Shown: one piece after another, positions 462 to 63,074 of the stretch
Numbering within the stretch: the stretch's first letter is position 1
How the letters are laid out: each line of letters starts with the position of its first letter
Source of the DNA: Amoebophrya sp. A120
Lineage: Eukaryota > Protista > Dinoflagellata
NCBI GenBank assembly: GCA_905178155.1
Contig: CAJINV010000022.1
Location: 310,001-374,000 of the forward strand
Reading direction: 5' to 3'
Length of the DNA: 64,000 nucleotides
Program-made: the position numbers and the translations under genes
Notes under the pieces: model-generated
What the model was told of the DNA's origin: nothing
The model's database searches: none
What the model saw: only the letters and a program-made list of their open reading frames with translations

Positions 462-3400
462 ATGCTCGTGAATAGAGGCTTGGAGCAGTATCCGCCACCA
501 GGAGGACCGGGGTCGACGTCCTATCAACTGCAAATATGCCTGGGTCTGGAAGGATCCAACTTGTGATGCTGTCTTTGGATTCTGATTACAAGACTAATAA
601 TGATCATTAGCGCTATTCTGGGCCTCAGGCCCCCCCTCAGGCCCCCCCTTAGGCCCCCCCTCAGGCCCCCCCTCGACCCCTAAGGCCCCCCCTGAGGCCC
701 CCCCTCAGGCCCCCCATGAGGCCAAAAAAGGCCCCCCCTAAGGCCCCCCCTGAGGCCCCCCCTGGGGCCCCCCCTTTTGCCCAAAGGGGGGGGGTTAGGC
801 CCCCCCTTAGGCCCCCCCTTTTTTTCGTGTTCGCAGACGCCCAGAGCCAAAAAAGGCCCCCCCTAAGGCCCCCCCTGAGGCCCCCCCTAAGGCCCCCCCT
901 GATGCCCAAGGGGGGTGGGTTGGGTCCCCCCCTTAGGCCCCCTCTTTTTTTCGCGAGCGTTCGCAGACGTCTGGCACAGAACATAAAGCCAGGCAGATCA
1001 TCGCCGACCATTTCTTTGACGCAGGCAGCGACCGAACAATCCCGGGCGGCGCCACGCGCTGTCTACCTTGGCTGGTCCGCCGGTTCTCATTCTGATTGCG
1101 GGCGGGGCCGCTTTGGTTTTGGACACAATAAACAAAGTCACGAAGTGAGTCCTTGGCTTTGGCTTCATATTTTGGCTACCGCCCCGGCTTTGTCCTTTGA
1201 TTTTAATTACTGGCGGGGCCGCTTCGGAATGCATGACACGCATGCCCTGTAGCCCTCCTGGACAATGCTATGCGCTGCGCAGTCGAAGGCGCCGGCAAGG
1301 CTCTTCGGAATGCTTTTCGTTTTCTACCGAAAAGCCGAACGGGATACGAGGCCCTTCCTGAGGCCCCTCTAAGACCCCCCCTTTGGCCAGTCCGGAAGGG
1401 CCCTCGCTCCCTCGGGCGTTCTGCCCTGACGGTTTGCTTGCTTTGCTTGGAGGCCCGCTAAGCGAGCCCCGGCGCCGGCAAATGCCCGAGCCTGAGGCCC
1501 CCCGGAAGGCCCCCCCGCTGGAACAGGAGCCCTGAGGCCCCCCGGAGGCCGCCCCGGAGGCCCCCCCCGGCAGAGGCCCCCCCGGAGGCCCCCCCTTTGG
1601 TCAGCCCGGAGGGGCCCTCCTGTCTTCTGCCCTGAAGCTTTGCTTGCTTTGCGTGAAGGCCCGCCGGGCGAGCCCCGGCGCCGGCCAATGCCCGAGCCTG
1701 TGGCCCTATTCATTGACAGCCCTGAGGCATCCCTGCGGCCCCCCCTACGGCCCCCCCCAATGGCCCCCCCTAAGGCCCCCCCTTTGGCCAGCCCGGAAGG
1801 GCCCTCGCTCCCTTGGGCCTTCTGCCCTGAAGTTTTGCTTGCTTTGCTTGAAGGCCTGCCAAGCGAGCCCCGGCGCCGGCACTCACATGCCCGAGCCGGA
1901 GGCCCCCCGCAAAGCCCCCCCGAACAGAAGCCCTGGGCCCCCCCCATGGCCGCCCCGGGGGCCCCCCCCCGAAGGCCCCCCCTGTGGTCAGCCCGGGAGG
2001 GCCCTCGTGTCTTCTGCCCGGAAGCTTTGTGTGCTTTGCGTGAAGGCCCGGCCCGCCAAGCGAGCCCCGGCGCGCGCCGGCAAATGCCCGAGCCTGCGGC
2101 CCTATTGATGACAGCCGTGAGGCCTCCCGCATGGGCCCCCCCCCCAAGGCCCCCCCTGAGGCCCCCCCTTTGGCCCCCCCTTTGGCCCTCGCTCCCTCGG
2201 GCCTTCTGCCCTGAGGCTTTGCTTGCTTTGCTTGAAGGGCTGCCAAGCGAGCCCCGGCGCCGGCACATGCCCGAGCCTGGGGCCCCCCGCAAAGCCCCCC
2301 CGAACAGAAGCCCTGCGGCCCCCCGGAGGCCGCCCCGGAGGCCCCCCCTCGCCCTGCCCAGGCCCCCCCTTTGGCCAGCCCGGAAGGGCCCTCGTGTTTT
2401 CTGCCCTGAAGCTTTGCTTGCTTTGCGGGAAGGCCCGCCAAGCGAGCCCCGGCGCCGGCCAATGCCCGAGCCTGTGGCCCTATTGACAGCCCTGAGGCCC
2501 CCCCTAAGGCCCCCCCTGAGGCCCCCCCTAAGGCCCCCCCTAAGGCCCCCCCTAAGGCCCCCCCTGAGGCCCCCCCTGAGGCCCCCCCTTTGGGCAGCCC
2601 GGCAGGGCCCTCACCCCCTCGGGCCTTCTGCCCTGGTGCTTTGCTCGCTTTGCTTGAAGGCCTGCCAGGCGAGCCCCGGCGCCGCCACATTCCCGAGCCA
2701 GCCCGAGGCCCCCCGCCCGCAAAGCCCCCCCGAGCCGAAGCCTTGAGGCCGCCCCGGAGGCCCCCCCTAAAGCCCCCCCCTTTGGCCAACCCGGAAGGGC
2801 CCTCGTGTCTTCTGCCCTGAAGCTTTGTTCGCTTTGCGTGAAGGCCCGCCAAGCGGGCCCCGGCGCCGGAAAATGCCCGAGCGGGCGGCCCTATTGACAG
2901 CCCGGGGGCCCCGCCAAAGGCCCCCCTAGGGCCCCCCTTGAGGCCCCCCCTTTGGCCAGCCCGGAACCCCTCGCGCCCTCGGGCCTTCTGCCCTGAAGCT
3001 TCCCTCTGCTTGAAGGCCTGCCAAGCGAGCCCCGGCGCCGGCTCAATCATGCTTGAGCCGGAGGCCCCCCGCAAAACCCCCCCGATGGAACAGAAGCCCT
3101 GCGGCCCCCCTGCGGCCGCCCCGAAGGCCCCCCCCCGCCCGGCCGAGGCCCCCCCCTCTGGCCAGCCCGGAAGGGCCCTCCCTGTCTCGCTCCCTCGGGC
3201 CTTCTGCCCTGGAACTTTGCTTGCTTTGCTTGAGGGCCCGCCAAGCGAGCCCCGGCGCCGGCAAACGCCCGAGCCTGAGGCCCTCATGACAGCCCGGAGA
3301 CCCCCCCTAAGGCCCCCCCGAAGGCCCCCCCGGAGGCCCCCCCCGAGGTCCCCCCCGGAGGCCCCCCTAAGGCCCGCCCGGAAGGGCCCTCGCTCACTCG

Positions 3401-6400
3401 GGCCTTCTGCCCTGACGCTTTGCTTGCTTTGCTTGAAGGCCCGCAGAGCGAGCCCCGGCGCCGGCAGATGCCCGGGCCTGAGGCCCCCCGCGAGGCCCGC
3501 CCGAACAGAAGCCCCGGGGGCCCCCCCGACCGAGGCCCCCCCCATTGGCCGGGCCGGGCGGGCCCTCGCTCCCTCTCCCGGGCTTTCTGCCCTGAGCCTT
3601 TGCTTGCTTTGCGTGAAGGCCCGCCAAGCAAGCCCCTGCGCCGGCCAATGCCCGAGCCTGAGGCCCTACCGGCAGCCCTGCGGCCCCCGGGGGGAAGGCC
3701 GCCCCGGAGGCCCCCTCTAAGGCCCCCCCTTTGGCTAGCCCGGAAGGGACCTCGCTCCCCCGGGCCTTCTGCCCTGGAGCTTTGCCTGCTTTGCTTGAAG
3801 GCCCGCCAAGCGAGCCCCGGCGCCGGCTTCTTTTGCGTAGTTGCTGGGCGGAGGGGCGCCAAAAGATATTTCTGCTTTTCTTTTGAGTTGGCACACGGCC
3901 AGAACGAAGCCCAACCACTTCGGCCCGCCCGTCCCTTGCCTTGGTGCGTTTTTACTCGGCCGCCGCCCCTCCATCGCCCGGCCCCCCCCATCGATCGTCA
4001 TCCCGCGGCTGACGCCTTCGATAGATTAGCGCGCGCATGATCGGGCGCAGCAACTGAAGTCCCCACGCCCCGGAGGTGTTCTGGGTGTAGAAATAGGGCC
4101 GGGCCACCACAGTACGAACGCAAAAGCCCGGCGAATGTCTGCACCACGACACTCACTTGCCCCATCGCCGGGGCCGCATGATCAGCGGGGCCGCTTCGCA
4201 GTGTTGTTAGGTAGTTTATCACGCACCGGAGACGGCGCCTCGACTTGCCTGAGCCTTTGGGTCGCCACATTTCCGCTCCGCTTCCGCTGTGCAGGTGTCA
4301 GAAGGCCTGTCGGCTTCTTACTTCAGAGCTGGCAGGCAGCTGCTCTGTGTGTACCCGAGGCGCCTTTCTGCTTTCTGTCTACAGCTGCTGCCCCTACAAC
4401 TTTATGTAGCGCGCGCACTGATCTCCTGTCGCGCTACTCTTCCTGAGCGCTACCCCTGCCCCGCCCTTCCTCCTTCCCAGGAAGCCCAGCCCAACAATCC
4501 TAATGATCATGCTTATGCAAAAAAATCAAGTTCAAGAAAGGGTCGCCCTTCAGGGCGACCCGTTTTCTTGTAAAATTAAAATCTGTATTGCATGACTAGC
4601 AAGAGGAGTCCAGTTTATGCCATGTGGAGAACGGAGAGGGCATTTCCATTTCTCATGCGGAATAGGCATCGGGAAGCCCTTCTGTGACGGTAGGCCATGA
4701 ATTACAGGCGTCATGGGTCATGATGCAGAGTATGCATTACAAACCTGGCAGCCTTCCAGACCCAGACATATTTGCAATGCATACGTCCTCTCCGACCGGC
4801 GCGATGGAACAGACTACGACCATTTCCCCCACCCGGACGGCCGCCTACGGGATTAAACGCGACGTAAAGCGTGTGAACCCGGTTGCGCACGAGCATGTGG
4901 AGGAGATCGAGAAGCTACTGTTAACGGTGTCGAGGGAATTCCCAACGATCGGCTACACGCAGGGAATGCACGAGGTACTGATGTTCAGTTCTTCTGCAAC
5001 TTCCACCAGATGAGAAGATGCTTTTCTTCATCTTTTCTTCCATCGTTGAGATTTTCCATAGTTCTCGTCCCAGGCGGTTGTCCGGACCACTGGAGAGTCA
5101 TGCATTTGATGTTCCATTCAGAGATGTACGTAGATTGGCGTAGTCTTGTCATGCAAAAGAACCTGCTGCATCATTCCCGAACAAAACACAACAAGGTCGC
5201 CGCCGTTCTGGTCTACCGCCATTCTTCCATGCACGCTCTCCCCGGTTTATGTATCAAAAACGTAGTTCTTGTGTTGTGTACGTAGGACAAATAGCATAAA
5301 CTTCGCTCGGAAGTAACTCAACTTCTTATGCTGACCAAGGTACAGAAAAGACAGTTGTCACGCGTGACGGCAATTATGAAAGAATAGTACTGACGAACAA
5401 GATACTTTGCGATGCATAAACCTCCCCCTTGGACGACTTCCGAACGCTGCTGAGTAACTGCGGCGATATATCCTGAGTAAAAACGTACCCACACCAGAGT
5501 TGCAATGCAGATTTGCAAAGACAGGAAGACTTGTAACGCGCATCCCCATGAGAGCCATTTCTAATCGTGTTTTGGAATTTGTGATGCTGTGAACAGGATG
5601 AGCAGGCGCATCTGTGATGCGGCTGCACTTGCTAACCTGCACTACACTGCATAGTGCAACTTGTCATGCGTGACTCACAAAAATCCTAGGTTTGTGTTGC
5701 AAAATCCCCATCTTGACTCTGGTGCGGGTACGTTTTTACTCAGGATACGATATGTGGCGGGACGGCATGCCGAAAATTCACGAGGCGGTGCTGATTGTGA
5801 ATAACCTGCTCCACAAGCACTTACCCAGACTCCACCATCACTGGTTCACGTCCTGTCAGCCAAAGGTGGACACGCTGTCTATGGCGTTCTCAAACGTTAC
5901 ATTTTCAACTGTTACATGAATTTGTGATGCAAGAATGGGAAAAGTGAAAGGGGGAAGGCGGCACCTGTAGCATTACAAATTTCGCACAGATTTAGGTGCG
6001 GTCTAGCCCTTCGCAAATTTGTCATGCGAAGCAGCTTAATCATGAGGATGATGATGGTGCTTTTGCATGACAAATTCATGTAACAGTTGAGAGTGTAACG
6101 CTTGAGAACCCCATACTGTCAATCCTGCCGAACGGGTTGTTTTATGCATAATTGTGAAAGTAGTACTATCGCACTTCTTGCATTACAAAATTGCTCTGCA
6201 TGAAAAAAGAAAATCTGGAGTTCTTTGTCATGCTACTTCACCTTGGGAAGCAGATTTATCATGCAGTACAACTAGTACGAGTGCGATACTTAACTTTTGC
6301 AATGCATACACCAACCCTTTTCGTCCACTGGTTTGGGTTTGACAACGCCTGTCACCACGTGGTGTCCTTTCTCGTGAAGGAGAAGTACCCGGCTTTCCTC

Positions 6401-9400
6401 GCGGTTGTGCTATGAAGGCCTCAGAAGGGAAATCCTCAAAGTGAAAATAGTTTGTAATGCAAAAAAACACTCCAGTTGAAGCGCCACTTCTAGGGGGCGC
6501 ATGACAAATTTCCCGGGCACTCAAAGCATGTCTGTCATGCAGGTTAAGGCAAAGGGGTGCCCTTCTCTCGTGCTAATCAACACTCCAATTCTTAACCCGT
6601 AGGAAGACAATAGCCGGCCTCCATTGCGTCCTCTGCAATACAGTCTTTTTTGCGTCGCATTTCATGCATCACAAATTTGAGGATTTCCATTCTGAGGCTG
6701 TCATATGTGCTAGGCACGTTTGAGTACTTGGCGAACTCCGCCGGGATTTTGGAGCGAGATTTCGAAGAGTCCTATCCAAGAAAAAAACGTTGTTAGTGTA
6801 AATTTGTGATGCGCAACATGCAAGATGATTGCGTCTGTCATGCTTGGCATGCATCGTAGGGTCCATTGAAGGGCATTTTCGCATACTATCTGCGCATGAC
6901 AGGTTTTTGCTGTCATGCCAGACAAATTTGTAATGCTGTTCCTCCAAAAAAGTTACACCTACAATGTTTTTTTCTTGGATAAGTCCATGATTTACTTCAG
7001 TAAGGAGATGCTGATCCGGTTCCAGGTGTCACGTATCCCTTGCAGAATCATCTTCGCTCGCACTGCATCGAAATTTGCAACGGCTAAACTGCACGATATT
7101 GTGAACAAATGCACATGCTCGTCATCATAGTACTTATCCGCATTTACAAATTTCGTGCGCGTGCGCGCGCAGGTGGTTTACTTTTGCAGCAGGATACTCC
7201 GGCAAGAAGACGTGAACAGCTACAACAAGATGCAGAGAGTGTATCACAGGAAAAAGTGTTAACGTCAACGAAACTTGTGATGCAGCAATGCATGATCACT
7301 AAACGAATAAACGTGCCAAATAAATTTGTCATGCATAGCATGCGTATTGGGCTACATTTGTGATGCATGGCTGCAATCTGTGAATAAAACCTTTAAAAAC
7401 GTTAACACTTTTTCTTGGGATAGATTGCTGCAGGAAATCATGGACCTGGCGCGGGGGAAGTACTTGGCGATTGCAAAAGAGGAGTTAAAATACAGTGTGG
7501 AACCCAACCGCGAAATTTCGCCGGCGCCGAGTGTCGCCCAGTACTCGGTGAATTCAAATTCGTTCGGAACAAGAGGAGGTGTAGGTCCTGGAGCCATGGC
7601 AAATGTGATCCCCCTTACGGAGCAAAATTTGTCCCAGCTACCGCTGAAGTCCAGCGTAGACACGACGCAGCCGGCTGCAGGTGCGCAATATGGATTGCAA
7701 ATGTGTCTGGGTCTGGAAACTTGTGATGCTGGGCTGTGAACAGACAATGCCCTGTAATGCACAGCAGAACATAATGAGAAATATGTGCTCGGCTATAGTG
7801 CTGCGCTTTCTGCGTGACAAGCTGCGTTTTCGCATGACAAGGACAAGGGTCTCTTGTTGGACACACATCACAAGTGTTTCTGTCATGCCAGACAAGCATG
7901 ATAAGGATAACCTTGTTGTATCCTTCCAGACCCAGACATATTTGCAGTTGATACGCAAGGAAGTGGCGCTAATCCACGAACCACCGGACCAGGTAGTGTT
8001 CCAGGACCAGGCTCTGCAGTACCATTAGAGCAGTCTTACCTCATCTCTCCCCAGCAACAGCGGGAGCAGCAACGAGAGCGGGACTTGCAGCAGACCCTGC
8101 AGCAACAGCGACAACTGCAGGAACTGCAGCACCGACAAGCCGAGTTGAGTTACCAGCAAAACCGCCAGGTGCAGATTTCCAACGAACGGCCGGAGGAACT
8201 GAGCCCGTTTTTGCAGATCGGCGGAGCCAGGTCGAGTTCCAGCTTTCAGCATATGCACCGCAAATATGTCTGGGTCTGGAAAACTGCAACGTTTGTCATG
8301 CACATTTTTTTTACATGGCCGATGACATGATCCAGGGATCATTATATTTGCAACGCATACAGCAGGATCTACCAGCACGGTTGCCGCAGCAGCCGGCCTC
8401 GAAGGGTGGAATGACAATGCCGGGGACGAGTGTGAACCTAGGTATATTTAAAAAGACGTACCTAATTTAAGTATTTTGATACTTCTGTGGTCAGCTGACA
8501 GTGCATTGCTCACTGCTCGCCTTCCATATTGTCATCAATGCTGCAGCACGACAAGAAAAGCAAAGCAAACTCCTTCAGGTGGAGCTCCACCCCAGCAACA
8601 CCCCCATCCGTCCTCCAACAGCGTCGCTGAGACCGGTAGTGTATGACAATGCACAACTCCCCCTCCCCCTCATTTGTATAGCATGAACGGCAATACAAGC
8701 ATCCGCAAGAATGTCGGTTTTGCATGACAAATTTGCACTGGATTGTAGTGCTCTTTGGGCTTCCAGGATTTGTCATGCAAACAGTGCTACAAGGCAGCAG
8801 CTGGATTTGGGATTTTGCATTACAAAGGAGTGGGAAGGGGGGTTGTGCACTTTCATATAGTGCGAAAGGAAGCTACTTGATCAAACCGAAAAACTCCACG
8901 GCCTCCCGGCCCCAAGCGGACCGGCAGTACTTGGAACAACAGGTTTACGGCACCAGAGGGACGACACCACAGTCCGTACACAACAATAACCCCACAACCT
9001 CTACTCCGAACCGCAATCCGTATGGCGCGTCTAATTCCTACGCCGACGAATTTAGTCAGGAGCAGTTACTGAACCAACGGTCGCCGTCTATCGCAGCGGG
9101 ATATTCCGTTACCAGCAACCCAGGCGTGGGCGTTAATATTTCTGCAACATCAATAAACAATCCGTCACATGGAGGCGCTGGCGGTCCTGCCACACCCTCG
9201 CAGCAGCTGCATCAAATGAACCTCATAAACACTGCCGCAAGCAACAGCCGGAACACCAATAATTATCCGTTTCACGCGGACGATAGGAGATCGGACTACA
9301 ATTTTGATACCAGGACGAACAAATCCGAAAATAACCACCCTGGGTCGCAGATTCAATCGCAATTGGAAACGCAGTTGCAGCGGGTGAGTGACGACAACAA

Positions 9401-11593
9401 TGAGAAGAGCCGGAAGATCGCGGACTTGCAAGAACAACTGGCCCAAATGAGGCAGCAGAAGGAATCCGAAGTCGTGCAGCGGCTCCGGAAGGAGAGCGAA
9501 CTGGCGACGAACGAGAAGGAAACGGCAGACGCGGTGAAAAGTAATGCAGAAATGGCCCGCGTCATTGAGGATCTGAACATGAGGGAGAAGGCACTGAAGC
9601 AAAAAATATCTACTTATCAAACTATAAAAATGTTAGCGGTAACGGAATTTGTGATGCAGTAACGCATCAGAAATAAACGGCCCAAATTTGTATTGCGTAG
9701 CATGTATGGAAAGCAAAATTTGTAATGAGTGACTGCCATCAGGGAAAACCGTTAAGGTTGACACTTTTTTGCTTGATGCTACTATGGAAAAGGACATAGA
9801 GCAACACCACCAGAACATGGCCGCTGTTGCAGAGGGCAGAGCTTTATCGAATGCAAAAATGTCTCGGTCTGGAATAGTGTAACTTGTCACGCTACATGTG
9901 GATCGTGGAAGCATTTGCGTTGCATGATTACCAAAAGAGGCCCGCTTTTGAACAAGTTTAGAGGCAGTTTCTCATGCAGGAGCGGCATGATAGGGATCTC
10001 ACAGAACCTGTCATACCAGGCCGTGCATGGCAGACCGCGTGTGTCATGGAAAACCTGCATGACAAACCTACCAATCTTCCAGTCCCAAACATTTTTGCAT
10101 TTGATAAGTTTCCCAGGCTAAAGGACCGGATATATCGGACTACGCAGGGGAAACGGAGACACTTATGCATTGCAAAAGTATCGTACTCGTATTGCAATCA
10201 TGCATTACAAATCTTTCTCTTAAGGTAAATCAGCATTACAAATTTTATCTCTCATGCTGAGGAAATTTGTAATGCATTTATACGAGTACGATACTTTTTC
10301 CCTGGATAACACTGGAAATGGTACGATACTCAATAAGTGGTTGTTTTCGAATATTGTGAATGTAACAGTAAGTCTTTGAGATTCGGATGATTTCCGGATG
10401 AGAATAAGAATAACTAAAGCGGTACAAGTTGTAATGCAAAAAAGCAAATATTAACGCAGGTGGAGCAATTCCTTCGTGAGTACGACGCCGGCTGCAAGGC
10501 GGACGAAAAAAGCACCGCAAAACTTCTCCCCGACAGGAGAAGTGTCCCGTATGCCATGCAGGTCGTAAAATGGACGACGGAACAGAAGCAATTCCATAGC
10601 AATGGCGTGTATGCATCGCAAAAGTATCGTACTCGTCATGAAAATCGCATAGAATACTAAACACTTGTTTTTTCAAAAGGACAAGCGGAACTTGTAATGC
10701 GGAATCAAGTAAGGAAAAAGCAATCGACATACGAATGCGATACCTTTGCAGACTTGATAGCGTAAGCAGGTTTCACCGGCACCTGCTGAGTTTAGCACAG
10801 GAACGGATTATGGAGCTTTTGCCCTTCGAGGAGCAGGTAGAGGTGCGCACGGTCGAAATCGCGGAAACCAACAGCAAACTGGCCCAAAGCTTTGAGAAAA
10901 TCCGGTTCCTGACGAACAAACTGGAGGAAAAGAAGATGGAATACAGCGGGGCGAGCAACGTCACGACGCTACCGAGGGAAGGTACCAGTAGTTACAACAA
11001 TAGCTGTGTTTCATTTGTGATGCGCTTTTCCGCTTACTGACGAGTTGTGTGATGCAAAAACCGCATATCATGTGCCGTCGGATCAAAAGAACGTGAACGA
11101 GGACTACGACACCAAAAAAAAACAGATGCCGTCCGTCTCACGGAGGAAAATCAGAATCTTCAAAACCGTATAGCGTCCCTACAAGAGGAAAACGCGAGGC
11201 TCGCAGATGTGGAAGTGGAGAACGTGCAGTTACAACAGGAATATGAATTGCAAAAGTATCGCACTCGTATAAATGCATTACAAATTTTCTCAGCATGAGA
11301 TAGAAATGTAATGCGGATTCACCGTAACAAAAAAGATTTGTAATGCATGATTGCAATACGAGTACGATGCTTTTGCACAGGATAAGGAACTCCTCCGGTT
11401 TAAGCCCTACCCCGGGGCGGTTGGCGGGAGCACCACCAGCGCCAGTGGGGCGACCGCGGGTAACTACACGAATAACGCCGCGAACAGCTCCCCCACTACT
11501 TACACCACTTACCACGCCACGCCGTCTGTGGCGTATCACCTCATTACCGGCGGGGGCGGGTCGGTCTACCTGTCGGCGGGCCCGCGGGGGTGA
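462..11593 (+). CDS. TBC (Rab-GAP) domain protein with low-complexity linker and C-terminal coiled coil; 22 exons (16 TIR introns, 5 GT-AG introns)
   Basis: Manual splicing gives an open frame from ATG 462 to TGA 11593. Exons: 462-521, 4789-4974, 5196-5247, 5424-5468, 5753-5879, 6121-6142, 6314-6410, 6711-6772, 6987-7025, 7173-7241, 7428-7688, 7959-8251, 8365-8441, 8579-8641, 8863-9614, 9784-9844, 10112-10163, 10314-10320, 10460-10609, 10765-10981, 11126-11241, 11390-11593. TBC-type motifs: IKRDVKR, PTIGYTQGMHEVAAVL, LLHKHLPRLHHH, GLFTLF, AFLAVVLG, DFEES. Confidence 0.82.
620..945. repeat. ~12-bp C-tract minisatellite GGCCCCCC(C)TAA/TGA/TCA; G-quadruplex-prone on the minus strand
   Basis: Repeated ggccccccctaa/ggcccccctga units. 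The same unit recurs at 2495-2590. Confidence 0.85.
1370..3830. repeat. ~200-bp GC-rich satellite, about 13 units, largely alternating between two subtypes
   Basis: Core CTTCTGCCCTGAAGCTTTGCTTGCTTTGC..GAAGGCC..CCAAGCGAGCCCCGGCGCCGG near 1465, 1672, 1866, 2065, 2250, 2445, 2673, 2856, 3028, 3248, 3451, 3632 and 3812. Subtypes are marked by CTCGCTCCCTCGGG versus CTCGTGTCTT. Confidence 0.9.
4975..5195 (+). other. Canonical GT-AG intron
   Basis: GAG|GTACTG...ACAAG|GTC joins GMHE|VAAVL, the TBC motif. Confidence 0.75.
5248..5418. mobile_element. Degenerate TIR introner (B-like)
   Basis: TATGTATC...GATGCATA. Flanks CGGTT/AACCT are decayed, but removing element+5 nt gives ALPGSPLDDF in frame. Confidence 0.6.
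5469..5747. mobile_element. TIR introner family E
   Basis: TATCCTGAGTAAAAACGTACCC/GGGTACGTTTTTACTCAGGATA; direct repeat CGATA; frame restored (CGDMWR). Confidence 0.9.
5880..6115. mobile_element. TIR introner family F
   Basis: TATGGCGTTCTCAAACGTTACA/TGTAACGCTTGAGAACCCCATA; direct repeat CTGTC. Confidence 0.9.
6143..6308. mobile_element. Degenerate TIR introner family B
   Basis: TATGCATA...TTGCAATGCATA. Flanks TGTTT/CACCA match 0/5, yet removing element+5 nt gives NGLF|TLFVHW. Confidence 0.7.
6411..6705. mobile_element. TIR introner family G
   Basis: TATGAAGGCCTCAGAAGGGAAATCCTCAAA/TTTGAGGATTTCCATTCTGAGGCTGTCATA; direct repeat TGTGC. Confidence 0.9.
6773..6981. mobile_element. TIR introner family H
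   Basis: TATCCAAGAAAAAAA/TTTTTTTCTTGGATA; direct repeat AGTCC. Confidence 0.9.
7026..7172 (+). other. Canonical GT-AG intron with CAGGTG repeated at both junctions
   Basis: CAG|GTG...CAG|GTG; frame continues RFQ|VVYF. Confidence 0.65.
7242..7422. mobile_element. TIR introner family C
   Basis: TATCACAGGAAAAAGTGTTAACG/CGTTAACACTTTTTCTTGGGATA; flanks GAGTG/GATTG. Confidence 0.88.
7689..7953. mobile_element. TIR introner family A
   Basis: TIR core GTCTGGGTCTGGAA/TTCCAGACCCAGAC; direct repeat CGCAA. Confidence 0.9.
8252..8359. mobile_element. Short (108 bp) internally deleted family A introner
   Basis: TATGCACCGCAAATAT/ATATTTGCAACGCATA; direct repeat CAGCA; frame restored. Confidence 0.8.
8442..8578 (+). 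other. Canonical GT-AG intron
   Basis: TAG|GTATA...TCAG|GT; frame maintained. Confidence 0.6.
8642..8857. mobile_element. TIR introner family I
   Basis: TATGACAATGCACAAC/GTTGTGCACTTTCATA; direct repeat TAGTG. Confidence 0.9.
9615..9778. mobile_element. TIR introner family C (divergent)
   Basis: TATCAA...TTGATG; direct repeat CTACT; joins KIST|MEKD. Confidence 0.82.
9845..10106. mobile_element. TIR introner family A
   Basis: Family A TIRs; flanks AGCTT/AGTTT. Confidence 0.87.
10164..10308. mobile_element. TIR introner family B
   Basis: TIR core AAAAGTATCGTACTCGTA/TACGAGTACGATACTTTT; direct repeat ACACT. Confidence 0.9.
10321..10459 (+). other. Canonical GT-AG intron
   Basis: ATG|GTACG...ACGCAG|GTG joins LEM|VEQF. 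Confidence 0.6.
10610..10759. mobile_element. TIR introner family B
   Basis: Family B TIRs; flanks GCGTG/GCGTA. Confidence 0.85.
10982..11125 (+). other. Canonical GT-AG intron
   Basis: GAAG|GTACC...AAACAG|AT joins PRE|DAVRL. Confidence 0.65.
11242..11384. mobile_element. TIR introner family B
   Basis: Family B TIRs; direct repeat AGGAA. Confidence 0.9.
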
Positions 11594-23005: not shown

Positions 23006-23058
23006 TTTGTTGAACAAAAGTGACCGGTTTGTGGAAGAAATTGTGAACAAAGTGAAAT

Positions 23059-30600: not shown

Positions 30601-30928
30601 CAAGATCTTCTAGATCATGCTCGTCCTACTTCGAGGGCACTCAGCACTCCTCATGGATGATTGATGTTGTGCTTCACTTTCGTGCTCTCACAGCAATATA
30701 ACCACGTACTCTTAGTCAAGAACAAGAACCCTACTAGCTTTTTCCAAAAGCCCCGCTACTTCGGCTCTTGTCGTTTCGAAGTAAGACCTCAAGCTCACTC
30801 TCACTCTCACACTCACAAGAATACAAAGAGTAACAATATCACGTAAGTAAAGTACTAAGTAACAAGTAGAAGCATCATCTCGTCCTACGGCTAGTATATT
30901 ACCTTAGCACTTCTCATTCACCTCGAAA

Positions 30929-45326: not shown

Positions 45327-45959
45327 AAGTTGACCGTCGTAGGCTCTGGCAGCAGTGGTGAGAGTAATACAACAGTTGTTCCCGCTCTTGCTCTAGTAGT
45401 TTGGTCCTCAACTTTTTCAGAATCTTCTTCTACACGACCGGAGAGGGAGACGATCTTACAAAATTAACAATCTACTGCGCACGCATAATTCTTGATATTA
45501 GTCACACCAGTCTGTAGCGAAATAAAAGCGACATGCTCAAATGAACAATCCGGTCGCTGTTCTTGTTGGTCTAGCGTTTCTAGAGTCAAACGAAGATGAT
45601 GACCACGCTGGTGCTGTCTTTAAACTTGTGAGAGCGATATTTGAAGACGCAGCGTCCCTAGCGGAACAGCTTCAGGTATGAGGAAAAGCGATGCTGTTGC
45701 GTAATGTTTTTGTAGTGCGTGTGCGAGGCTAGGCCACGGTGTTGATCTCTGCATAGATGTTGAGTGAACGTTTTTACGACCACCACGAGCGCAGTTGAGA
45801 TTTATATACTCTGAGTTAGAATCAACTTGACCTTGACGTTATTCATTGCACCTTTACAAGAAGAACCCTAAACCATAAACCCTTTCGTTAGCATAAGTGA
45901 TGGATCACATCGCGTCCGTTTCTGTTGCAGCCGTTTTTTAAATTCAATCTCACAACAAG

Positions 45960-48638: not shown

Positions 48639-51600
48639 ATGATGTTGAGCTTGGACCATCTCCTTCTGCCTCGACGTATGTCGGCAGCTGTCTCTCCGTC
48701 GGCATCGGCATTTCGATGGAAATGGTGTTGTCGCCAGCTTTTCCTGCTCTCGTTCTTGACAACGAGATTTTGCCATGCGGTTGAGGGAAGCGAGGAGTCC
48801 CCCGAGCCGGTCGGAGAAACCGCGAAGAGCAGCCACGATGCCAATGCCGCCCCCGCGAACCCCCCGTCGACTACCAATATTAAACAGCAACCGAAATCCC
48901 TTTCCCAAAAATTCACCGCAAAACTCAACTACATTACCGAGCGCTACCCCCACGTCGCGCCATTTTCCAGTGCGAAGGAGCAGTGGCTGCGGGGCGATCC
49001 TGCGCCTTTTCGGTGCCCCGGCGTTCCGAAAGCGGCGACGTTCAAAGCGAAGTATTTGTTGGAAAAGCATCGCACTGCTAGGATAAGTTGCAGTTGTCAT
49101 GCATGACAGATCCGCATGCGCATGCTTGCTTGAATCAGAATCCGCATGAGAGACTCCATTTTCCTTTCTTTTTTAGCGTATAAGTTGTCTTGCAACTACT
49201 TTTAAGTACTAGTAGGATGCTTTTCCAATGCATACCAGGCTGCTGCATGCGAAATGTCGGCTGACGATGGACATTGAGGTCGATGGCGAATCAGAGGCAG
49301 AACAGCCTAGCGCAGGCGAGGAAGTATGCATTGCAAAAGAACAAGAAGTATCGTACGTACTAGAAGAAATCGCGTGGCAACATATTTCACGAAGATGACA
49401 ACTGGGGTTTGTCATGCATCGCCAGGTAAGATAGAAGGCGAATCTGTCACGCATGACTGCGATTTTACGAGCGCGATACATTTCCATTTGCAATGCATAG
49501 GAAGAAGGACCTGACAAGAGAAGTGCCGGAGGCAGTAGTTGCGCAAAAGTGGCCCAGGAGATCATCGCGCGGGTACGCGGCGAAAAGAATAAAGAAAAAA
49601 AGAAATGGCAGGATCCGCACAACGGCGGGAAATACGCGGTGGCGGACGAGGAAGTATGAATTGCAAAGCTACGTATCGTGCTTGTAGTCTTACATTTACC
49701 ATTTTTCTTAGCTGCATGACGCATGGATGATGAATTGGGCACGCTGATTTATCTTGGCAAGTAGATTTGTCATTGGCATGGTGCATGATTGTGATTGCAA
49801 CTACGAGCGAGATTTTGCTTTTCCGATGCATAGACACTACCAATTGTGAACGTGTTCGACCTCGGGAGCAAGAGCAAGAAGGTGCTAAAGAAACTGGGAG
49901 CAAAACCCCCACCGACGAAGGACAAACCTTGGATCATACGGGTGCAACGGATGACAAACATGAAAGACCCAGCCGGAGAGCCACTGCCGGCGGAAAAGCA
50001 GTACACGGACAAAGTGAGCCTGGTTCTGGTCGACGGGGGATCATCCCCTGGCAAGTGTAAAGTGTTCGGCTGCTCTATGGAACTGTCAGGATCGAAATCG
50101 GCAAAGTTGAGATGATTTATCATGCATAAAATGGATGCCGGTTGTAACCCAGTTTCCAAGTGACGCGTGACAAATCTGGGTAGAGCCGAAATCCTGTCTG
50201 TCATGCTGTTTGGGTAAGGAAGACGCCATTTTTCATGCTACTTTAGCAGCTCCATTTCTGCCCCTCAACAGGCTTACAATCTGTCTCACTTGCCTACTCT
50301 GCAAGACAGGCACTTTGTGGGTTGTGTTTTATGCGTGACGACCTTTTTCAACTTTGACGATTTCGATCCTGACAGTTCCATATGCTCCGAATCCCAAGTT
50401 TTCTCCATGTTGGACGGGTCGACCAACTACTGCAACCTGCGGAATCTGGTATGCTATTCGATGGTGCAAAAGTTGGAGAGATATCGCATATTTTGCTTGT
50501 GGTTGGATGAAGGTGGAGTAGAACTGCAAGAAGAGCCTAACTTGCAGTGCGCAAGAAGTAGATTTCTTTGCAGATACCAGCGGCACTACGATGTATGCAA
50601 ACACGGTTTTGACCACTACACTCATCGATATCATCAACTTTTGCAAACCGCCTGTATAACTCCGGCGCAGCGGACGGCTGTCCGTTTGTGCACCATTCCT
50701 TCGCGAAGGTCACCTCGAACCCCGACGGTAAGGACCAGCGCTGCACACAACACGATAACGCTATGTGCAACACGGGACCAGCCGCTCTACAACTTCCTAA
50801 GGCACCGGCGGAGGAGGAGGCAGTAGAAGCAAAGGACAGTGGCGGCGAGAAGGCGGAGGAGGATGTAGATGCTAACGCAGACCACGGCGATGTTCAAGAT
50901 GAGCAGGGGCGGGACGGTACAAAAACAGAAGAGAATGCAGATGCAGACGAGCCCCAACCTGAAGTGCAAGATGAACAGGATGAAAAAGTGGACGAAGCGG
51001 AAGCGCCAGGGGCTCCTTCTGGTGAAACAGCTGCAGAAGATGCTGATGAAGCAATGGACTCGGTGGCGAAAGAAGTAGATGCGGGTAAGCCAGAGAAGAA
51101 ATCGTCGAAAAAGGAAAAAGACAAAGCGAAGGACAAGGACAAGGACAAAACGAAAGACAAGGACAACGAAATTAAAGTGAAAGAGAAGGACACAGCGAAA
51201 GACAAGGACAAGGACAACAAAGCGAAAGACAAGGACAAAGACATCAAAGCGAAAGACAAGGATAAATCGAAGGACAGCAGGAAATCTTCAAAATCAAAAA
51301 AGCCGATGTCCTCCAGGACCACTACCATCGAAGGCAAAAAACCTGCGGAAGATGCAGATGCGGGCGCAGACGAGCCCGCGCCTGAAGTGAAAGAACAAAA
51401 GGAGGACGAAGCGCAAGCTGTAGCTGCTTCTGGTGAACAAGGAGCAGAAGATGCTACTGACGCAAAGGACTCGGCGGCGAAAGACGATGTAGGTAACACG
51501 GCGGCGAAAGACGATGTAGGTAACACGGCGGCGAAAGAAGATGCGGGTAAGCCAGAGAAGAAGTCGAAAAAGGACAAGGACAGAGCGAAAGTAGACAAGG

Positions 51601-51911
51601 ACAAGAACGACAAAGAGAAAGACAGTGACATCAAAGCGAAAGACAATGACATCAAAGCGAAAGAGAAGGACAAAGCGAAGGACAGGAAATCTTCAAAGCC
51701 AAAAAAGCCGACGTCCTCCAGCACCCTCGAGGTCTTCGACGACGGGTCCTCCTCGCACTTCTACCCTCCGGAACCAGATGGACTGGCGGATGAGGAAGTG
51801 GAGACGCATGACAACGGGGAAACCTCCGCTCGTCAGCCACCAGAGGCCGTGAGACTAAAGGGAAAAGATCGAGAGGAAGATGGAAACTTGGAATTTCTCG
51901 ATAAGAGGTGA
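48639..51911 (+). CDS. Secreted Cys-rich protein with long Lys/Asp-rich tail, paralog 2 (5 TIR introns)
   Basis: Same motifs as the 45960 gene (ERYPHVAP, CPG, HAKCRL, WQDPHN, KQYTDK, GCSESQVFS, STNYCNLRNLVC, C-terminal LEFL). Exons 48639-49052, 49240-49324, 49505-49654, 49838-50075, 50388-50454, 50664-51911. Confidence 0.78.
49053..49234. mobile_element. B-like TIR introner
   Basis: TTGGAAAAGCATC/GATGCTTTTCCAA with TAT..ATA ends; flanks CGAAG/CCAGG. Confidence 0.8.
49325..49499. mobile_element. B-like TIR introner
   Basis: TATGCATTGCAAA/TTTGCAATGCATA; direct repeat GGAAG. Confidence 0.87.
49655..49832. mobile_element. Degenerate B-like TIR introner
   Basis: TATGAATTG..CGATGCATA; flanks GGAAG/GACAC decayed; removing element+5 nt restores the frame. 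Confidence 0.7.
50076..50382. mobile_element. TIR introner family G; empty site in the paralog
   Basis: TATGGAACTGTCAGGATCGAAATCG with an exact inverted copy; direct repeat TGCTC. Paralog reads GGCTGCTCCGAATCC uninterrupted near 46635. Confidence 0.93.
50455..50658. mobile_element. Old degenerate TIR introner at the same codon position as 46710-46992
   Basis: TGCAAAAGTTG/CAACTTTTGCA; flanks TATGC/ACTCC; joins LVC|GAADGC. Confidence 0.7.
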
Positions 51912-53250: not shown

Positions 53251-53443
53251 TTAGCTACTGAACAAGAACAAAAAGAATATGTTATAGGCACGAAACGAAA
53301 GAAAGAAGTTGTCTTTTTTATCCTCGCGTATAACTCATCATTCATGTTGGAGATACGAAAAATGTCAATCTGAACTTCCCTCTCCCTTCGTTCGTTTCTC
53401 ATTGTCAAGATTTTTGAATAACAACATCAACTTGAAAAACAAA

Positions 53444-59634: not shown

Positions 59635-62600
59635 ATGGTCGCCATGAATCTCTCCCAGGCGGAAAAAACCGCTCTCGACGAGGTGAAGCATACCTACAAA
59701 TATCACAGGAAAAAGTGTTAACATTTACTAGGGAATTTGTGATGCGGCAATGCATCACAAAACGTGCCCAAATTTGTCATGCATAGCAGGCATACTAGGC
59801 TAATTTTGTGATGCATAGCTGCAATCTGTGAAATAAACCGTAAACGTTAACAGTTTTTCTTGTGATAACAAACAGGACCAGTTGATGGTCGCGGGAGAAC
59901 TTTTGAAGGAAACGTTTGGAAAAAATGAGAAGAAACTCCTCGAAGTGACGGAAAAAGACGAGGAGATCCACGACGTCTCGCAGCGGTTCCAGATGATGCA
60001 AGACGTCCAAAAGACTTTGCAAAAGATCGACGAAGCGCGGGCTAATGACGGAAAGGCCGCTTCGGACGCGGAAAGTGGCAGTCTCATGGATGAGGAAGAA
60101 CTGAAAAAGCAGCAGGAGAAGGCAAACAAAACTTCCTCGAAAGATGCCGACGACGAGTATGGCGTTCTCAAATGTTACATTCTCAACTGTTACAGGAATT
60201 TGTAATGCAAGAACGGCAAAAATGAATGGGGGAAGCTTGTGCCTTTTGCATTACAGATTTGGCGCAGATGTTGATGTACATGCTGTTTAGCCCCTTCGAA
60301 GATTTGTCATGCGAAGGAGCTTAATGGTGGTGATCTTGGTGGCAAGTTTGCATGACAAATCATGTAACAGTTGAGAATGTAACGTTTGAGAGTCCCATAA
60401 CGAGAAAAATCAAGAAGTGGATCCGAAAGCCCCTCTGTGTATCAAGATCACGAATCCGGCCATTTTTGGAGGGGATAAAAATGCTACTTCCAACACGACC
60501 AATTCATCCAACATCGGCAACTGGCAGCTGCTCCGCGAGTACGACGGGATTAAGACCACTATGCGGACCGATGAGTTGTACGAGGACAATAACAACAAAA
60601 CCACCCGGATCTACAGCTTCACCGTCGAAGGGTCGGCCAACATCGAGTTCTTCCCGTTGTTATCCATCCTAAACGAAGCGGATCTGTATGTGAAGTGGAT
60701 TCCGTCGGTGTTGGGTTTAGGGTTAGTCCGTGCCGACATCATCGAACGGAAGAACCGGTGCGATTTTACGTCGCGGATTTTGATCAAGCTCCCCTTCCCG
60801 TTTTCCAACCGCCGCATCACGTTTAACATCCGGGGCTACGACTGCATGACGGAAAAGGATTTGGTGAAACAGGTTTTGGTGCAATTAAGCTCCGCGGAAA
60901 CCGTCTCTGTGGACCAAGACGGTGACGAAAACGATATCGCGAAGGAATACGAGGGATCCAAGCCCGCTGTCCTCGACAAATCCGCGATCGTTCTCACGCC
61001 GGAGGGCAAACACTCCACCTACGCACAGATCCTGGTGATATGGCTCTCTCAAACGTTGCATTCTCAACTGTTACATGCATAATTTTCCATGCAAGAATAG
61101 CAAAAGCACAAGGGGAGACCTTGCGCGGCGGCGCCGGGAACTTGTCACGTGAACAAGATTGATCGTGTGAAGTGTAATACTAGTGATTCTGCATTACAAA
61201 CTCATGCAACAGGAGTTGAGCATGTAACGTTCTTTGAGAAGGCCATAGCTGAACGTCGTCCCGTTGATCGCCTTCGCGCCCCAGTGGCTGGTGAATTTGG
61301 CGTTTAAGAATCTCGCGTTTTTGATTCTGTTGAAAATCCGCTCGGCGAAGGAAGTGACCGCGTCTCCGGTCTACAAAGACCGCCACATGGACCCGAACAA
61401 CGAGTTTTACGATTTCATCAAGATATCAACTGCAGATATGCCTGGGTCTGGATGAGTGCAGATGTTTGTCATGCATCTTCTCAATCACACAAAACAAATG
61501 GTCTGTCATCCACGTAAAAGCATTGATACAGGTTTCATGCTGGCCTCCTGATGCCTGTCCCGCATGACAAATTCCCTACTTGCGTAGCAAGAACTGGGAA
61601 GCTTTTGGCATGTCTATTCAAATATCCGCATGACAAGTTCCAATTGTTCTTCCAGGCCCAGACATATTTGCAATGCATACAAGACCCGTATGCGCGAGTC
61701 CATCCCCTACCAGGAGATCCCTGAGGACGTGGTGTTGCCCGAGGAAAACATCTACGGTTTTTGCCTTGGAAAAGCGGTTGGTGACAAAAAGAAATCCACT
61801 GCTGCCGCCGAGAACGGCTTGGAGTTATTAGAATCGGTCCGGAAACTGGTGGACTCCGTTCGGGTGAAGGTGTCCGACGCGTCGACCACGAATGGGGATA
61901 AGGACAAGGAAAAGGAGCAGAAAAAGAAAGAGGAGAAGAAGAACATATGCACTGCAAAAGTATCGTGTACTAGTATACATCGCATGACAAATTTCCTCAG
62001 CACGACGAGAAATGAAATTTGTAATGCGGATTGAACTTGAAAAAAAAAAAATTGCAATGCGTAAATACGATTAGTACGAGTGCGATGCTTTTGCAATGCA
62101 TAGAACAGTTTGAAGGACACGTTTGTCACGATCAACGAGACCATTTACGACTCCAAGTGGGCGAAGCAGTACCACGCGAACGAGCGTCTATTGTGAGGAA
62201 AAATCCCCCCTCCCTGTATTGAAACGGAAATTTGTCTTGCTGGATTTGTGTACACAAAACAGCTCTGTCTTGCAGAGAGACACTGCAGGCAACGCCTAAG
62301 CCTGTGTAGGTGGGTTTTGATGTAGGTGCTTAGCATAGCAGAGGCCTGCCATGTAGCCGCAGCAGCAGCACAAATCGCCCGCATAGGCCGGCGGATTCTT
62401 TGGATTTGCCCTCTTGCAAGAGAGACAGGATTTGTGGTCACATATCAGCATCGCAAACTTTTAGGAACGTACCTGCTCAATATGGGGAGGGGGGATTTTT
62501 CCTCACAATAGCGTCGGGTGACTGTTTTGAACATCCGGAAGGCGATGAAGGTCCGTCCGGTATCCCGTGTAAAAACGTCCCCACCCCAGAATTTTCATGC

Positions 62601-63074
62601 AATTCTGCATGCCAAAAAAGTTTCTCATGCGGAGCCCTATGAGAAGCCGCGTTCTCCATTCGTGTTTTGGAATTTGTGATGCAAGAATCAGCATGCTACC
62701 CAAGATCTGTGATGCTTCTGAACTAGCTCAACAGGATTACACTACGAGGACCACAAACTTACCATACCAAACAACCAAGGCTGGTTGATTTGTCTAGCAC
62801 AGTTGCCATCTTGACTCTGGTGTGGGGACGCTTTTAATCAGGATATCCGGGCTTGGACTTTTACAAAAACGGGAAAACGGAGGAGGAGCACATGAATGTC
62901 GAATACGGCAAGGTGATCGAATTCGATCTGCAAAAATGCACTGCTACGGTGGAATGGACGACCGAAGCTGGCTGGTTTTCCAAGGCGAAGACGCAGACCT
63001 TCGACTACAAAATCGGCCCGGTCGGGAAGTTCGAGTTGGCCAAGTGGTCCAAACACGAGCGAGATCAGTACTGA
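59635..63074 (+). CDS. START/SRPBCC-like lipid-binding domain protein; 8 exons, 7 TIR introns
   Basis: Frame restored across 7 elements. Motifs WQLLREYDGIKT, NEADLYVKWIP, LPFPFSNR, APQWLVN. Exons 59635-59700, 59873-60157, 60405-61038, 61253-61423, 61685-61945, 62108-62188, 62516-62560, 62851-63074. Confidence 0.8.
59701..59867. mobile_element. TIR introner family C
   Basis: Direct repeat ACAAA; similar to the 7242 copy. Confidence 0.9.
60158..60399. mobile_element. TIR introner family F
   Basis: Direct repeat ACGAG; similar to the 5880 copy. Confidence 0.9.
61039..61247. mobile_element. TIR introner family F
   Basis: Family F TIRs; flanks GGTGA/GCTGA. Confidence 0.85.
61424..61679. mobile_element. 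TIR introner family A
   Basis: Family A TIRs; direct repeat CAAGA. Confidence 0.88.
61946..62102. mobile_element. TIR introner family B
   Basis: Family B TIRs; direct repeat GAACA. Confidence 0.9.
62189..62510 (-). mobile_element. TIR introner family D, orientation 2
   Basis: TATTGTGAGGAAAAATCCCCCCTCCC with an exact inverted copy; direct repeat GCGTC. Confidence 0.92.
62561..62845. mobile_element. TIR introner family E
   Basis: Direct repeat TCCGG; ends similar to the 5469 copy. Confidence 0.88.

Follow-up and report, generated by a model that had tools for sequence, protein, structure and literature searches.

Seven genes in a 64,000-nucleotide stretch of the dinoflagellate Amoebophrya sp. 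A120 (contig CAJINV010000022.1, positions 310,001 to 374,000; hereafter the window, with positions counted from its first base) are interrupted by inverted-repeat elements that mostly start with TAT, end with ATA and lie between 5-bp direct repeats, and that hardly ever offer a GT-AG splice site. The question raised by this locus is how such elements entered the genes and how they are taken out again. On balance we favour a reading in which they are mini-transposons with terminal inverted repeats (TIRs) and a 5-bp target-site duplication (TSD), removed together with five flanking bases at a fixed cut by a relaxed spliceosome that is assisted by the hairpin of the paired element ends.

The elements are the A120 introners of Farhat et al. 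(2021, PMC7789003), i.e. the phenomenon is already known, as the first-pass annotation had stated. The window exons match the annotated A120 proteins P0001 and P0002 with 100% identity and coverage, and 40 of the 52 elements have near full-length matches in the JACKZZ01 loci described below. According to the text and legends of that paper, on which our comparison draws (its Figures 3, 4 and S19-S25 may already show part of what follows), A120 has 29,850 such introns and more than 60% of its introns are non-canonical; the inverted repeats (IRs) read TAT, then seven variable bases, then AAA, and direct repeats (DRs) of 3-5 nt overlap the intron borders, with a 5-bp example in the legend of Fig. 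S19. The same DR/IR layout is shared by 15% of the canonical introns. We found the TAT+N7+AAA ends, the 3-5-nt border repeat, the families and the non-canonical removal from RNA in the window as well, so that both accounts agree in genome, IR consensus, direct repeats, multitude of families and non-GT-AG junctions, which are supported by RNA-seq in theirs. Whereas the border is given there as unknown or variable and the DR as 3-5 nt, we observe a uniform 5-bp duplication that arises on insertion and place the cut between its bases 4 and 5. Our literature search returned no paper fixing the A120 cut register or showing lariats, and this fixed register is likely what is new beyond print.

An independent catalogue, compiled from an inverted-repeat scan with exact 5-bp flanks, a gapped scan, self-BLAST and reading of the sequence, reproduced the 51 elements of the first-pass annotation together with their lengths, duplication classes and seven host genes. 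They span positions 522-62845, all in plus-strand genes, start with TAT (49) or TAC (2), end with ATA (48), ATG (2) or ACA (1) and measure 108-332 bp, except for one of 4,262 bp. The 5-bp flanks agree at all five positions in 37 elements, at four in 7, at three in 3 and at two or fewer in 4; the exact flanking repeat is 5 bp long in 37 of 51 and 4 bp or 6-9 bp long in none. A 52nd, decayed element at 5248-5418, whose removal is required by the frame of the first gene, had been overlooked. All elements together make up 24% of the window. When TA..TA matches with a 25-nt TIR and an exact 5-bp repeat were counted in 4800-64000, the native sequence gave 29 and each of 10 block dinucleotide shuffles gave 0. 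The previous figure was about 11 families; at 50% length the 52 elements form 9 multi-copy clusters and leave 10 singletons, and with any match counted the clusters number 12.

Both ends of the elements follow the profile TAT(C/G)N6AAAA, with TAT at the start in 50 of 52 and A at positions 11-14 in 39, 40, 45 and 37. An internal motif, TGTNATGC/GCATNACA, is present in 46 of the 52 elements and occurs 120 times in 11,034 bp of elements compared with 16 times in the 48,704 bp outside; it is likely a transposase site. A role as branch site was dropped, since its distance from the 3′ end is not fixed. Rfam gave no match, and viral contigs none to two TIR patterns. A candidate at 21923-22007 (85 bp) was excluded from the 51 for having no duplication. 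Around it, a 35-bp segment occurs in three copies (21888, 22188, 23010), the first of which is followed by this 85-bp TAT..ATA element without duplication.

If kept, 51 of the 52 elements would break their host gene; the exception is 25863-25977, which with its flank forms 120 nt without a stop, so that its removal is not required. Removing each element plus five bases gives open frames of about 1,858 codons (over 13 elements), 1,004 codons (over 7) and 614 codons (over 7). It is important to note that removing element+2 or element+8 opens the frames equally, while other lengths fail; because of this, the frame fixes the removed length only modulo 3. The first-pass claim that excision of element plus 5 nt restores the frame in every case thus stands as far as open frames go, although it needed independent evidence for the length, and at 25863-25977 the frame is open with or without removal.

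The length of +5 was settled by RNA-like contigs and by gap-free homologue alignments (Table 1). The contig comparison covers 37000-51000, which holds 20 elements. In run X3, four gaps in three contigs equal the element plus 5, and +0, +2, +3, +4, +6 and +8 all misfit. These gaps jointly span 12 of the 20 elements, 11 of which have no GT-AG in any register, and one of the contigs additionally lacks an ordinary GT-AG intron (47113..47272). The first-pass annotation had named retained elements or the use of nearby GT-AG sites in transcripts as what would speak against it, and its expectation was borne out at these sites. Two points weigh on the other side: X3 is RNA by the tool's guess, and the RNA evidence comes from the 16 pieces listed out of more than 20,000. 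The raw RNA runs X9 and X10 contributed 38 and 3 partial reads, all confined to elements, which speak neither for nor against removal. In DNA contigs of run X1, five elements are complete and 22 element-exon borders are spanned at a depth of about 26-32; the ends of other element copies in these contigs coincide exactly with the called borders. We have little doubt that the elements are RNA-level introns of transposon origin.

The same contigs bear on whether excision takes place at the DNA level, ahead of transcription, in the manner of the internal eliminated sequences (IESs) of ciliates, as the first-pass annotation had considered. IESs have TA-bounded ends with short TIRs, which the present elements resemble, and our DNA evidence stems from a single run; even so, this run shows the elements in place at even depth, with no exon-exon join among the 15 joints listed, beside which there are 1,130 more. 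Moreover, an RNA-like contig lacks the ordinary GT-AG intron too, and IES excision would leave one TA, not a 5-bp target. DNA-level excision thus found no support in the DNA contigs listed, and we regard it as barely credible.

Further copies show how the elements insert. A TIR-pattern scan of 13 of the 64 parts of the collection, biased to one family, yielded 156 loci, all on JACKZZ01 contigs, with 319 elements; the 5-bp repeat is exact in 236 of these, and a 6-bp repeat occurs in 0. On the window, the locus detector recovers 35 of 52 elements with 2 false calls, and a blind detector 21 with none false; 43 of the 319 elements could not be oriented and are left out of the locus statistics. A search that ignored the terminal 4 bases returned 5′ TAT in 201, 200 and 196 of 202, with ATA as the 3′ end. 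One locus, L103, is the orthologue of 16563-16914. There the 16620 element is missing and TAGAC is single; conversely, at two places with one target copy in the window, L103 bears an element flanked by a 5-bp duplication. Besides these three reciprocal empty sites there is one in the paralogue of gene 6, with one TGCTC where the 50076 element has two. The 5-bp repeat therefore arises on insertion. Within genes the elements lie in both orientations (34/27, 25/13, 16/19 and 10/7 by family), and the target bias is weak and palindromic, with C first and G last. With their TIRs, their shortness, their lack of coding sequence and a TSD made on insertion (four single-copy empty sites), the best reading is that the elements are non-autonomous, non-coding TIR mini-transposons similar to miniature inverted-repeat transposable elements (MITEs). 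The first-pass annotation had come to the same classification.

As a separate observation, the record of the predicted protein P0003 (209 aa, 98% identical) carries a family-B element at window position 10940, where the window has none, likely another insertion polymorphism. On the cut register P0003 was uninformative: it was predicted from a different record, and its start lies within an element.

Which enzyme moves the elements? Unrelated families share the repeated internal motif TTTGTNATGC, which suggests one enzyme acting in trans; the likely mover is a DDE enzyme of the integrase type. Gozashti et al. (2025, PMC12130899) list an A120 family 38 with TIRs and Copia/Gypsy-like open reading frames (ORFs), filed as 'Ginger; 5-bp TSD, TA/TA termini', although the text of that paper describes it as lacking the termini and TSDs of true Gingers; most of the 58 A120 families are entered there as TIR DNA of unknown superfamily, the automated TSD calls range from 2 to 11 and the splice-recruitment labels are mixed. 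Compared by description only, family 38 and the window elements are alike in being TIR DNA transposons with 5-bp TSD and TA/TA termini, whereas family 38 is about 808 bp long with ORFs and the window elements are non-coding. The mobilising enzyme is thus less open than the first-pass annotation had put it: a Ginger-like candidate has been published, although none was found in the sequences examined here. IS3EU/GingerRoot transposons likewise have TA..TA termini but usually a 6-bp TSD (PMC10045372); the TSD here is 5 bp, and 6 bp occurs in 0 of 370 elements (0/51 and 0/319), so that the doubt of the first-pass annotation was justified. The inferred enzyme would resemble IS3EU in the ends it acts on, but the elements are not to be filed there.

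A coding copy was sought among the long elements. By its sequence, the 4.26-kb element at 522-4783 is a short family-B introner with a nested non-coding insert and not an autonomous copy. The insert (588-4570) comprises about 4 kb of GC-rich sequence with degenerate 190-bp and 12-bp tandem repeats, ends in ACAAGA..TCTTGT and has a hairpin, GGGTCGCCC-TTCA-GGGCGACCC, close to its 3′ end. None of the five ORFs scanned had a Pfam match and the 156 loci held no match to the insert, which is possibly a second kind of mobile element. It and six longer locus elements were ruled out as autonomous, since all are nested or tandem arrangements. None of these seven long TA..TA elements (64-kb window plus 504 kb of loci) is a coding copy, and that no transposase was shown in them counts against the transposon reading. 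Two further short introners with nested non-coding inserts were seen at L021 505-1608 and L029 632-1465; in L029 the end of the insert is an ATC repeat that resembles the tail of a non-LTR retrotransposon.

The lack of coding sequence in all seven would also suit a spread via an RNA intermediate (reverse splicing or retro-integration) instead of DDE cut-and-paste, and Farhat et al., who detected no transposase in A120, preferred a copy-paste mode (PMC7789003). However, the mobile unit (TAT..ATA) differs from the spliced unit (N+element+4 nt), and the TIRs, both orientations, the uniform 5-bp TSD, the palindromic C..G bias and the empty sites are hallmarks of DNA transposons; A120 TIR elements with integrase-like ORFs have moreover been reported, as described for family 38 (PMC12130899). 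We consider the RNA route quite improbable and retain the DNA transposon reading.

Since perfect duplications cannot place the junction and mismatched copies can, imperfect sites were used to locate the cut, numbered by the duplication base that it follows. The X3 RNA pieces retain upstream base 4 at 47326, 49053 and 50455, i.e. the cut lies at 4 or later at three sites. The upper bound (cut 4 or earlier) comes from the annotated proteins only, at two sites: P0001 fits uniform cuts 1-4, with a mismatch at cut 0 (S/L) and at cut 5 (D/N), and P0002 fits cut 4 only, 49655 alone permitting 3 or 4. The upstream copy is ancestral at 16620 (orthologue) and 50455 (paralogue). When codon likelihoods were computed for 49 imperfect duplications of the loci, cut 4 scored best, by the small margin of -497.9 against -500.3 for cut 5, and none of the seven informative sites contradicts cut 4. 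At 61039, where cut 1 would read GT-AG and cut 4 AT-TG, the column in homologues has V in 10 and L in 6 of 56, with V in the closest homologue; the search of representatives returned no A120 START-like protein. Taken together, it is quite probable that the cut is fixed between duplication bases 4 and 5. The intron would therefore comprise one target base (the last) ahead of the element, the element itself and four target bases behind it, N+TAT...ATA+NNNN.

In this cut-4 register the 52 introns begin with CT (16), GT (14), AT (13) or TT (9) and end in 15 different pairs, with AG in 4, so that neither the 5′ GT nor the 3′ AG of U2-type introns characterises them; GT-AG is readable in some register in 2 of 52 (49053, 61039). 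The terminal T and A of the TIR, in contrast, are invariant at intron positions +2 and +3 in 52/52. Elements whose duplications agree at only 2/5 positions (49655, 50455) are still correctly removed; therefore the cut is not guided by the duplication and the ends of the element set it.

Several points speak against a fixed cut at 4|5, namely for an intron that starts at TAT (cut 5) or a site-dependent register. The exclusion of cut 5 comes from two annotated proteins and not from reads, and cut 4 yields a GT start at both protein sites, possibly the choice of an annotation pipeline favouring motifs. The RNA pieces are blind to cut 4 versus 5, base 5 being identical in both copies at all three sites. 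Published junctions are motif-biased: in the part of PMC12130899 consulted, family 2 (9,716 copies) has 69% 5′ NT and 68% 3′ AN, against 32% A at duplication base 3 in our own set. The deviations of 5′ T and 3′ A (1 vs 5 of 223) do not differ significantly. In PMC7789003, the legend of Fig. 3 has the splice sites variable relative to the hairpin and that of Fig. S23 places the IRs 1-5 nt from the splice sites. Such variation would, however, be generated by aligners within perfect 5-bp repeats, and cut 5 is excluded by both annotated proteins, with 0/7 informative sites against cut 4. An unfixed cut is thus unlikely. Table S4 of the same paper, as far as consulted, shows T at +2 in all nine leading A120 non-canonical pairs and TT at the start of all nine A25 pairs, the A25 IRs starting with TTA; we gave it little weight because annotation tables are motif-biased.

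From these data we propose the following sequence of events. A DDE transposase acting in trans would bind the TAT(C/G)N6AAAA ends, possibly also TTTGTNATGC, and insert the element with a 5-bp staggered cut. The gene is then transcribed through the element in either orientation, as observed for 12 elements, and the TIRs are predicted to pair and to draw both ends together. Finally, the RNA would be cut 1 nt before TAT and 4 nt after ATA, the length being directly observed and the register likely. Thereby the element would provide U+2 and A+3 of the donor, while G+1 and the 3′ AG would come from the target and be unconstrained, and the hairpin would replace splice-site recognition in a relaxed U2-type spliceosome. 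Since the coding sequence is restored exactly, almost all insertions would be near neutral, which would explain the mass invasion. For such splicing by ruler, in which the paired TAT...ATA ends set both cuts and only U+2/A+3 are needed, we see about an even chance.

Computed folds are in line with the hairpin. Predicted folding energies have z below -2 in 45 of 51 elements (median -6.7), and TIR positions 11-22 are predicted to be paired with a mean probability above 0.5 in 47 of 51; single folds including flanks gave z of -2.5 and 0.2. In the decayed elements at 5243-5423 and 6134-6318, the flanks are mutually complementary (GGTT/AACC and GGGTTG/CAACCC), which lengthens the hairpin past the TIR.

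A relaxed U2-type spliceosome is favoured because U+2 and A+3 sit at donor positions, because in this cut-4 register 49053 reads as a plain GT-AG intron and because the spliceosome is mostly kept: according to the text of PMC7789003, A120 retains 83 of 89 spliceosomal proteins and U2, U4, U5 and U6, with U1 undetected. Against this stand several of our own counts. G is as frequent at +1 as at the mirror position (85 vs 86 of 243), AG at -2/-1 exceeds its mirror without significance (25 vs 10, p 0.12), and among 33 cases with differing copies AG lies in the intronic copy in 4 and in the exonic one in 4. At +5 there is a tendency to C and not G (5′C/3′G 66 vs 47, p 0.09). No branch site stands out in the elements, and no lariat was shown. 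Bases -1 and +1 show no coupling (p 0.12). A lean to G at +1 in imperfect window duplications (7/15 vs 7/37, p 0.08) was dropped, as it was unrepeated in the loci (6 vs 4 of 11). All in all, spliceosomal chemistry of removal appears rather likely. The removal independent of GT-AG signals that the first-pass annotation had postulated agrees with the RNA-like contigs, with the qualification that U+2/A+3 resemble a donor in 52/52.

The same elements and fixed cut could also be served by a non-spliceosomal, hairpin-guided endonuclease and ligase, as proposed for euglenids. The strong predicted terminal hairpins, the symmetric ends spliced in both orientations, and G+1 and AG that are free, with no clear drift toward either, would suit such a machine; so would the undetected U1 (PMC7789003) and the report that euglenid TIR introns yield circles without lariats (PMC11282704, in the part consulted). 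Euglenid non-conventional introns are also alike in having a TIR hairpin that joins the ends, non-canonical borders and TSD-like repeats. They differ in a stem with CAG at +4..6 and CTG at -8..-6 (PMC11282704), whereas the stem predicted here runs from +2 to -5 and positions +4..6 read T(C/G)N and not CAG. Furthermore, the 1-nt/4-nt offset sets U+2 and A+3 precisely at donor positions, with 49053 as GT-AG in the same register; weak folders (46710 with z -0.5, 50455 with z -0.9) are still removed; and the DR/IR layout in canonical A120 introns points to a continuum handled by one machine. We therefore consider a nuclease and ligase somewhat unlikely and prefer the relaxed spliceosome. The introners of Micromonas and Aureococcus and the introns of Fritillaria, in the published accounts consulted, are similarly MITE-like and draw on the target duplication for a portion of a splice site, but the former require a near-canonical GY-AG and the latter keep AG-A(N), whereas here only U+2 and A+3 are fixed.

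The unknown border in the account of Farhat et al. blocked mechanistic tests, and a fixed layout N|NTAT...ATANNNN| makes the splicing question testable. It predicts the 5′ base of the excised RNA and hence primers for lariats or circles, as well as which mutations should abolish splicing (+2 U, +3 A, stem) and which should be harmless (+1, -1, -2). It would also permit correct re-annotation of about 30,000 A120 introner junctions. In structures of the yeast P complex, G+1 pairs with G-1 and the branch A with A-2. If the spliceosome is responsible for the removal, it works without these pairings. If splicing by ruler is true, any 5-bp duplication would be undone exactly, an entire superfamily of transposons would become introns at no cost, and splicing chemistry would proceed without the G+1 and AG contacts held essential. 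Table S4 and the IR consensus of PMC7789003, in the parts consulted, further suggest one donor rule for both strains, N-TA in A120 (target plus element) and TT-A in A25 (element alone).

Table 1. Host genes, introners and the RNA-supported ordinary intron of the window. Paired flanks are upstream/downstream; 5/5 marks identical flanks; families are lettered.
Feature	Position	Strand	Flanks	Remarks
Host gene 1, N-terminus possibly TBC-like (by motifs)	462..11593	+		17 elements and four predicted GT-AG introns
Host gene 2, annotated A120 protein P0001 (992 aa)	12530..17119	+		7 elements
Host gene 3	23056..26775	+		1 element
Host gene 4, 1,858-codon frame	36626..45326	+		13 elements; AKR-like part a lead only
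Host gene 5 (paralogue A)	45942..48091	+		2 elements and one GT-AG intron
Host gene 6 (paralogue B), annotated A120 protein P0002 (733 aa)	48639..51911	+		5 elements
Host gene 7, START-like, 612 aa	59563..63074	+		7 elements
Introner B (~280 bp)	522..4783	+	CGTCC 5/5	nested ~4-kb GC-rich non-coding insert
52nd introner, decayed	5248..5418	+	CGGTT/AACCT	
Introner G	5469..5747	+	CGATA 5/5	
Introner H	5880..6115	+	CTGTC 5/5	
Introner A	6143..6308	+	TGTTT/CACCA	flanks decayed; position-5 mismatch
Introner E	6411..6705	+	TGTGC 5/5	
Introner, singleton	6773..6981	+	AGTCC 5/5	
Introner, singleton, decayed	7034..7196	+	TCACG/CTCCG	
Introner F	7242..7422	+	GAGTG/GATTG	
Introner C	7689..7953	+	CGCAA 5/5	
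Introner B	8252..8359	+	CAGCA 5/5	shortest (108 bp)
Introner I	8642..8857	+	TAGTG 5/5	
Introner F	9615..9778	+	CTACT 5/5	end ATG
Introner B	9845..10106	+	AGCTT/AGTTT	
Introner A	10164..10308	+	ACACT 5/5	orientation opposite to 40314
Introner	10610..10759	+	GCGTG/GCGTA	position-5 mismatch
Introner A	11242..11384	+	AGGAA 5/5	
Introner D	13596..13915	+	AAGGA/CAGGA	not in annotated protein P0001
Introner D	14012..14343	+	TTGTT 5/5	P0001 comparison
Introner	14672..14822	+	GAGTG/GAGCA	cut 5 excluded by annotated protein P0001
Introner I	14971..15186	+	TTGGA 5/5	P0001 comparison
Introner C	15776..16027	+	GAGAG 5/5	P0001 comparison
Introner A	16110..16264	+	GACGC 5/5	P0001 comparison
Introner A	16620..16769	+	TAGAC/CAGAC	L103 empty site, one TAGAC; P0001 excludes cut 0
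Introner, singleton	25863..25977	+	GAAGA 5/5	in-frame read-through possible
Introner B	38376..38641	+	CGATC 5/5	
Introner B	38699..38950	+	TCAAT 5/5	
Introner B	39058..39325	+	ATACC 5/5	opposite orientation; end ATG
Introner A	39376..39515	+	CAGCA 5/5	
Introner C	39825..40085	+	TGCAG 5/5	start TAC
Introner A	40314..40455	+	GATCC 5/5	
Introner B	40608..40873	+	TGTTG 5/5	
Introner B	41575..41840	+	CAACT 5/5	end ACA
Introner A	42845..42994	+	CAGCA 5/5	RNA-like contig skips 155 nt (adjacent pieces)
Introner B	43760..44023	+	AGTTC 5/5	RNA-like contig skips element
Introner A	44160..44308	+	CGACC 5/5	skipped, by length arithmetic
Introner E	44361..44670	+	CGAAC/CGAGC	skipped, by length arithmetic
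Introner D	44717..45041	+	CCGAC 5/5	RNA-like contig skips element
Old introner	46710..46992	+	TCTGT 5/5	start TAC; skipped in RNA-like contig, whole in DNA contig
Ordinary GT-AG intron (GTAGAA...TTCAG)	47113..47272	+		skipped in RNA-like contig that skips 46710
Introner A	47326..47489	+	AGACG/AGGAG	upstream base 4 kept in RNA contig: cut at least 4
Introner A	49053..49234	+	CGAAG/CCAGG	cut-4 register reads GT-AG; cut at least 4
Introner A	49325..49499	+	GGAAG 5/5	skipped, by length arithmetic
Decayed introner	49655..49832	+	GGAAG/GACAC	annotated protein P0002 permits only cut 3 or 4
Introner E	50076..50382	+	TGCTC 5/5	paralogue's empty site has single TGCTC
Decayed introner	50455..50658	+	TATGC/ACTCC	RNA contig keeps upstream base 4; junction CT..TC or TA..CC
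Introner F	59701..59867	+	ACAAA 5/5	
Introner H	60158..60399	+	ACGAG 5/5	
Introner	61039..61247	+	GGTGA/GCTGA	GT-AG reading possible at cut 1
Introner B	61424..61679	+	CAAGA 5/5	50/51 homologue alignments without gap at junction
Introner A	61946..62102	+	GAACA 5/5	
Introner D	62189..62510	+	GCGTC 5/5	4/4 homologues without gap
Introner G	62561..62845	+	TCCGG 5/5	4/4 homologues without gap

The first-pass annotation had also held that removal of the elements rebuilds TBC, AKR-like and START motifs. This was supported for START in gene 7, where the START-like label has an Atlas score of 0.96, with START on 13-15% of members, and the homologue P0007 matches PF01852 (E 5e-17). The AKR-like label of gene 4 (Atlas 0.81; Pfam AKR match in none of three exons) is a lead only, and the N-terminus of gene 1 may be TBC-like, to judge by the motifs IKRDVKR and GYTQGMHE in the local translation.

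The first and fifth genes need ordinary GT-AG introns in addition. The RNA-supported one begins with GTA, and so do plausible models of the four others, each with several alternatives. The predicted GT-AG introns at 4975-5195, 10321-10459 and 10982-11125, which start with GTAC and include the introner motif TTGTNATGC, possibly descend from old introners that turned canonical. The old elements at 46710-46992 and 50455-50658 occupy the same codon position in the tandem paralogues A and B and have no BLAST similarity to each other; judging by position, they probably go back to a single insertion that predates the gene duplication.

Outside the modelled genes, an isolated introner-like 3′ end (..tttttgcaatgcata) lies at 33304-33332. 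The region 17700-19480 is GC-rich (~63%), with no Pfam match in the four ORFs scanned, and nothing in it matches the nested insert. In 30310-36005, two intronless ORFs (567 and 574 codons) without a Pfam match form a tandem duplication that includes their upstream and downstream regions, and 22404-23046 is similar to the regions upstream of the ORFs at 30908 and 33777. Two further genes are free of elements: 57225-58949 encodes a SET-domain protein (PF00856, E 5e-9), and 53288-56398 combines a VWA with an alpha-kinase domain (PF02816, E 9e-32).

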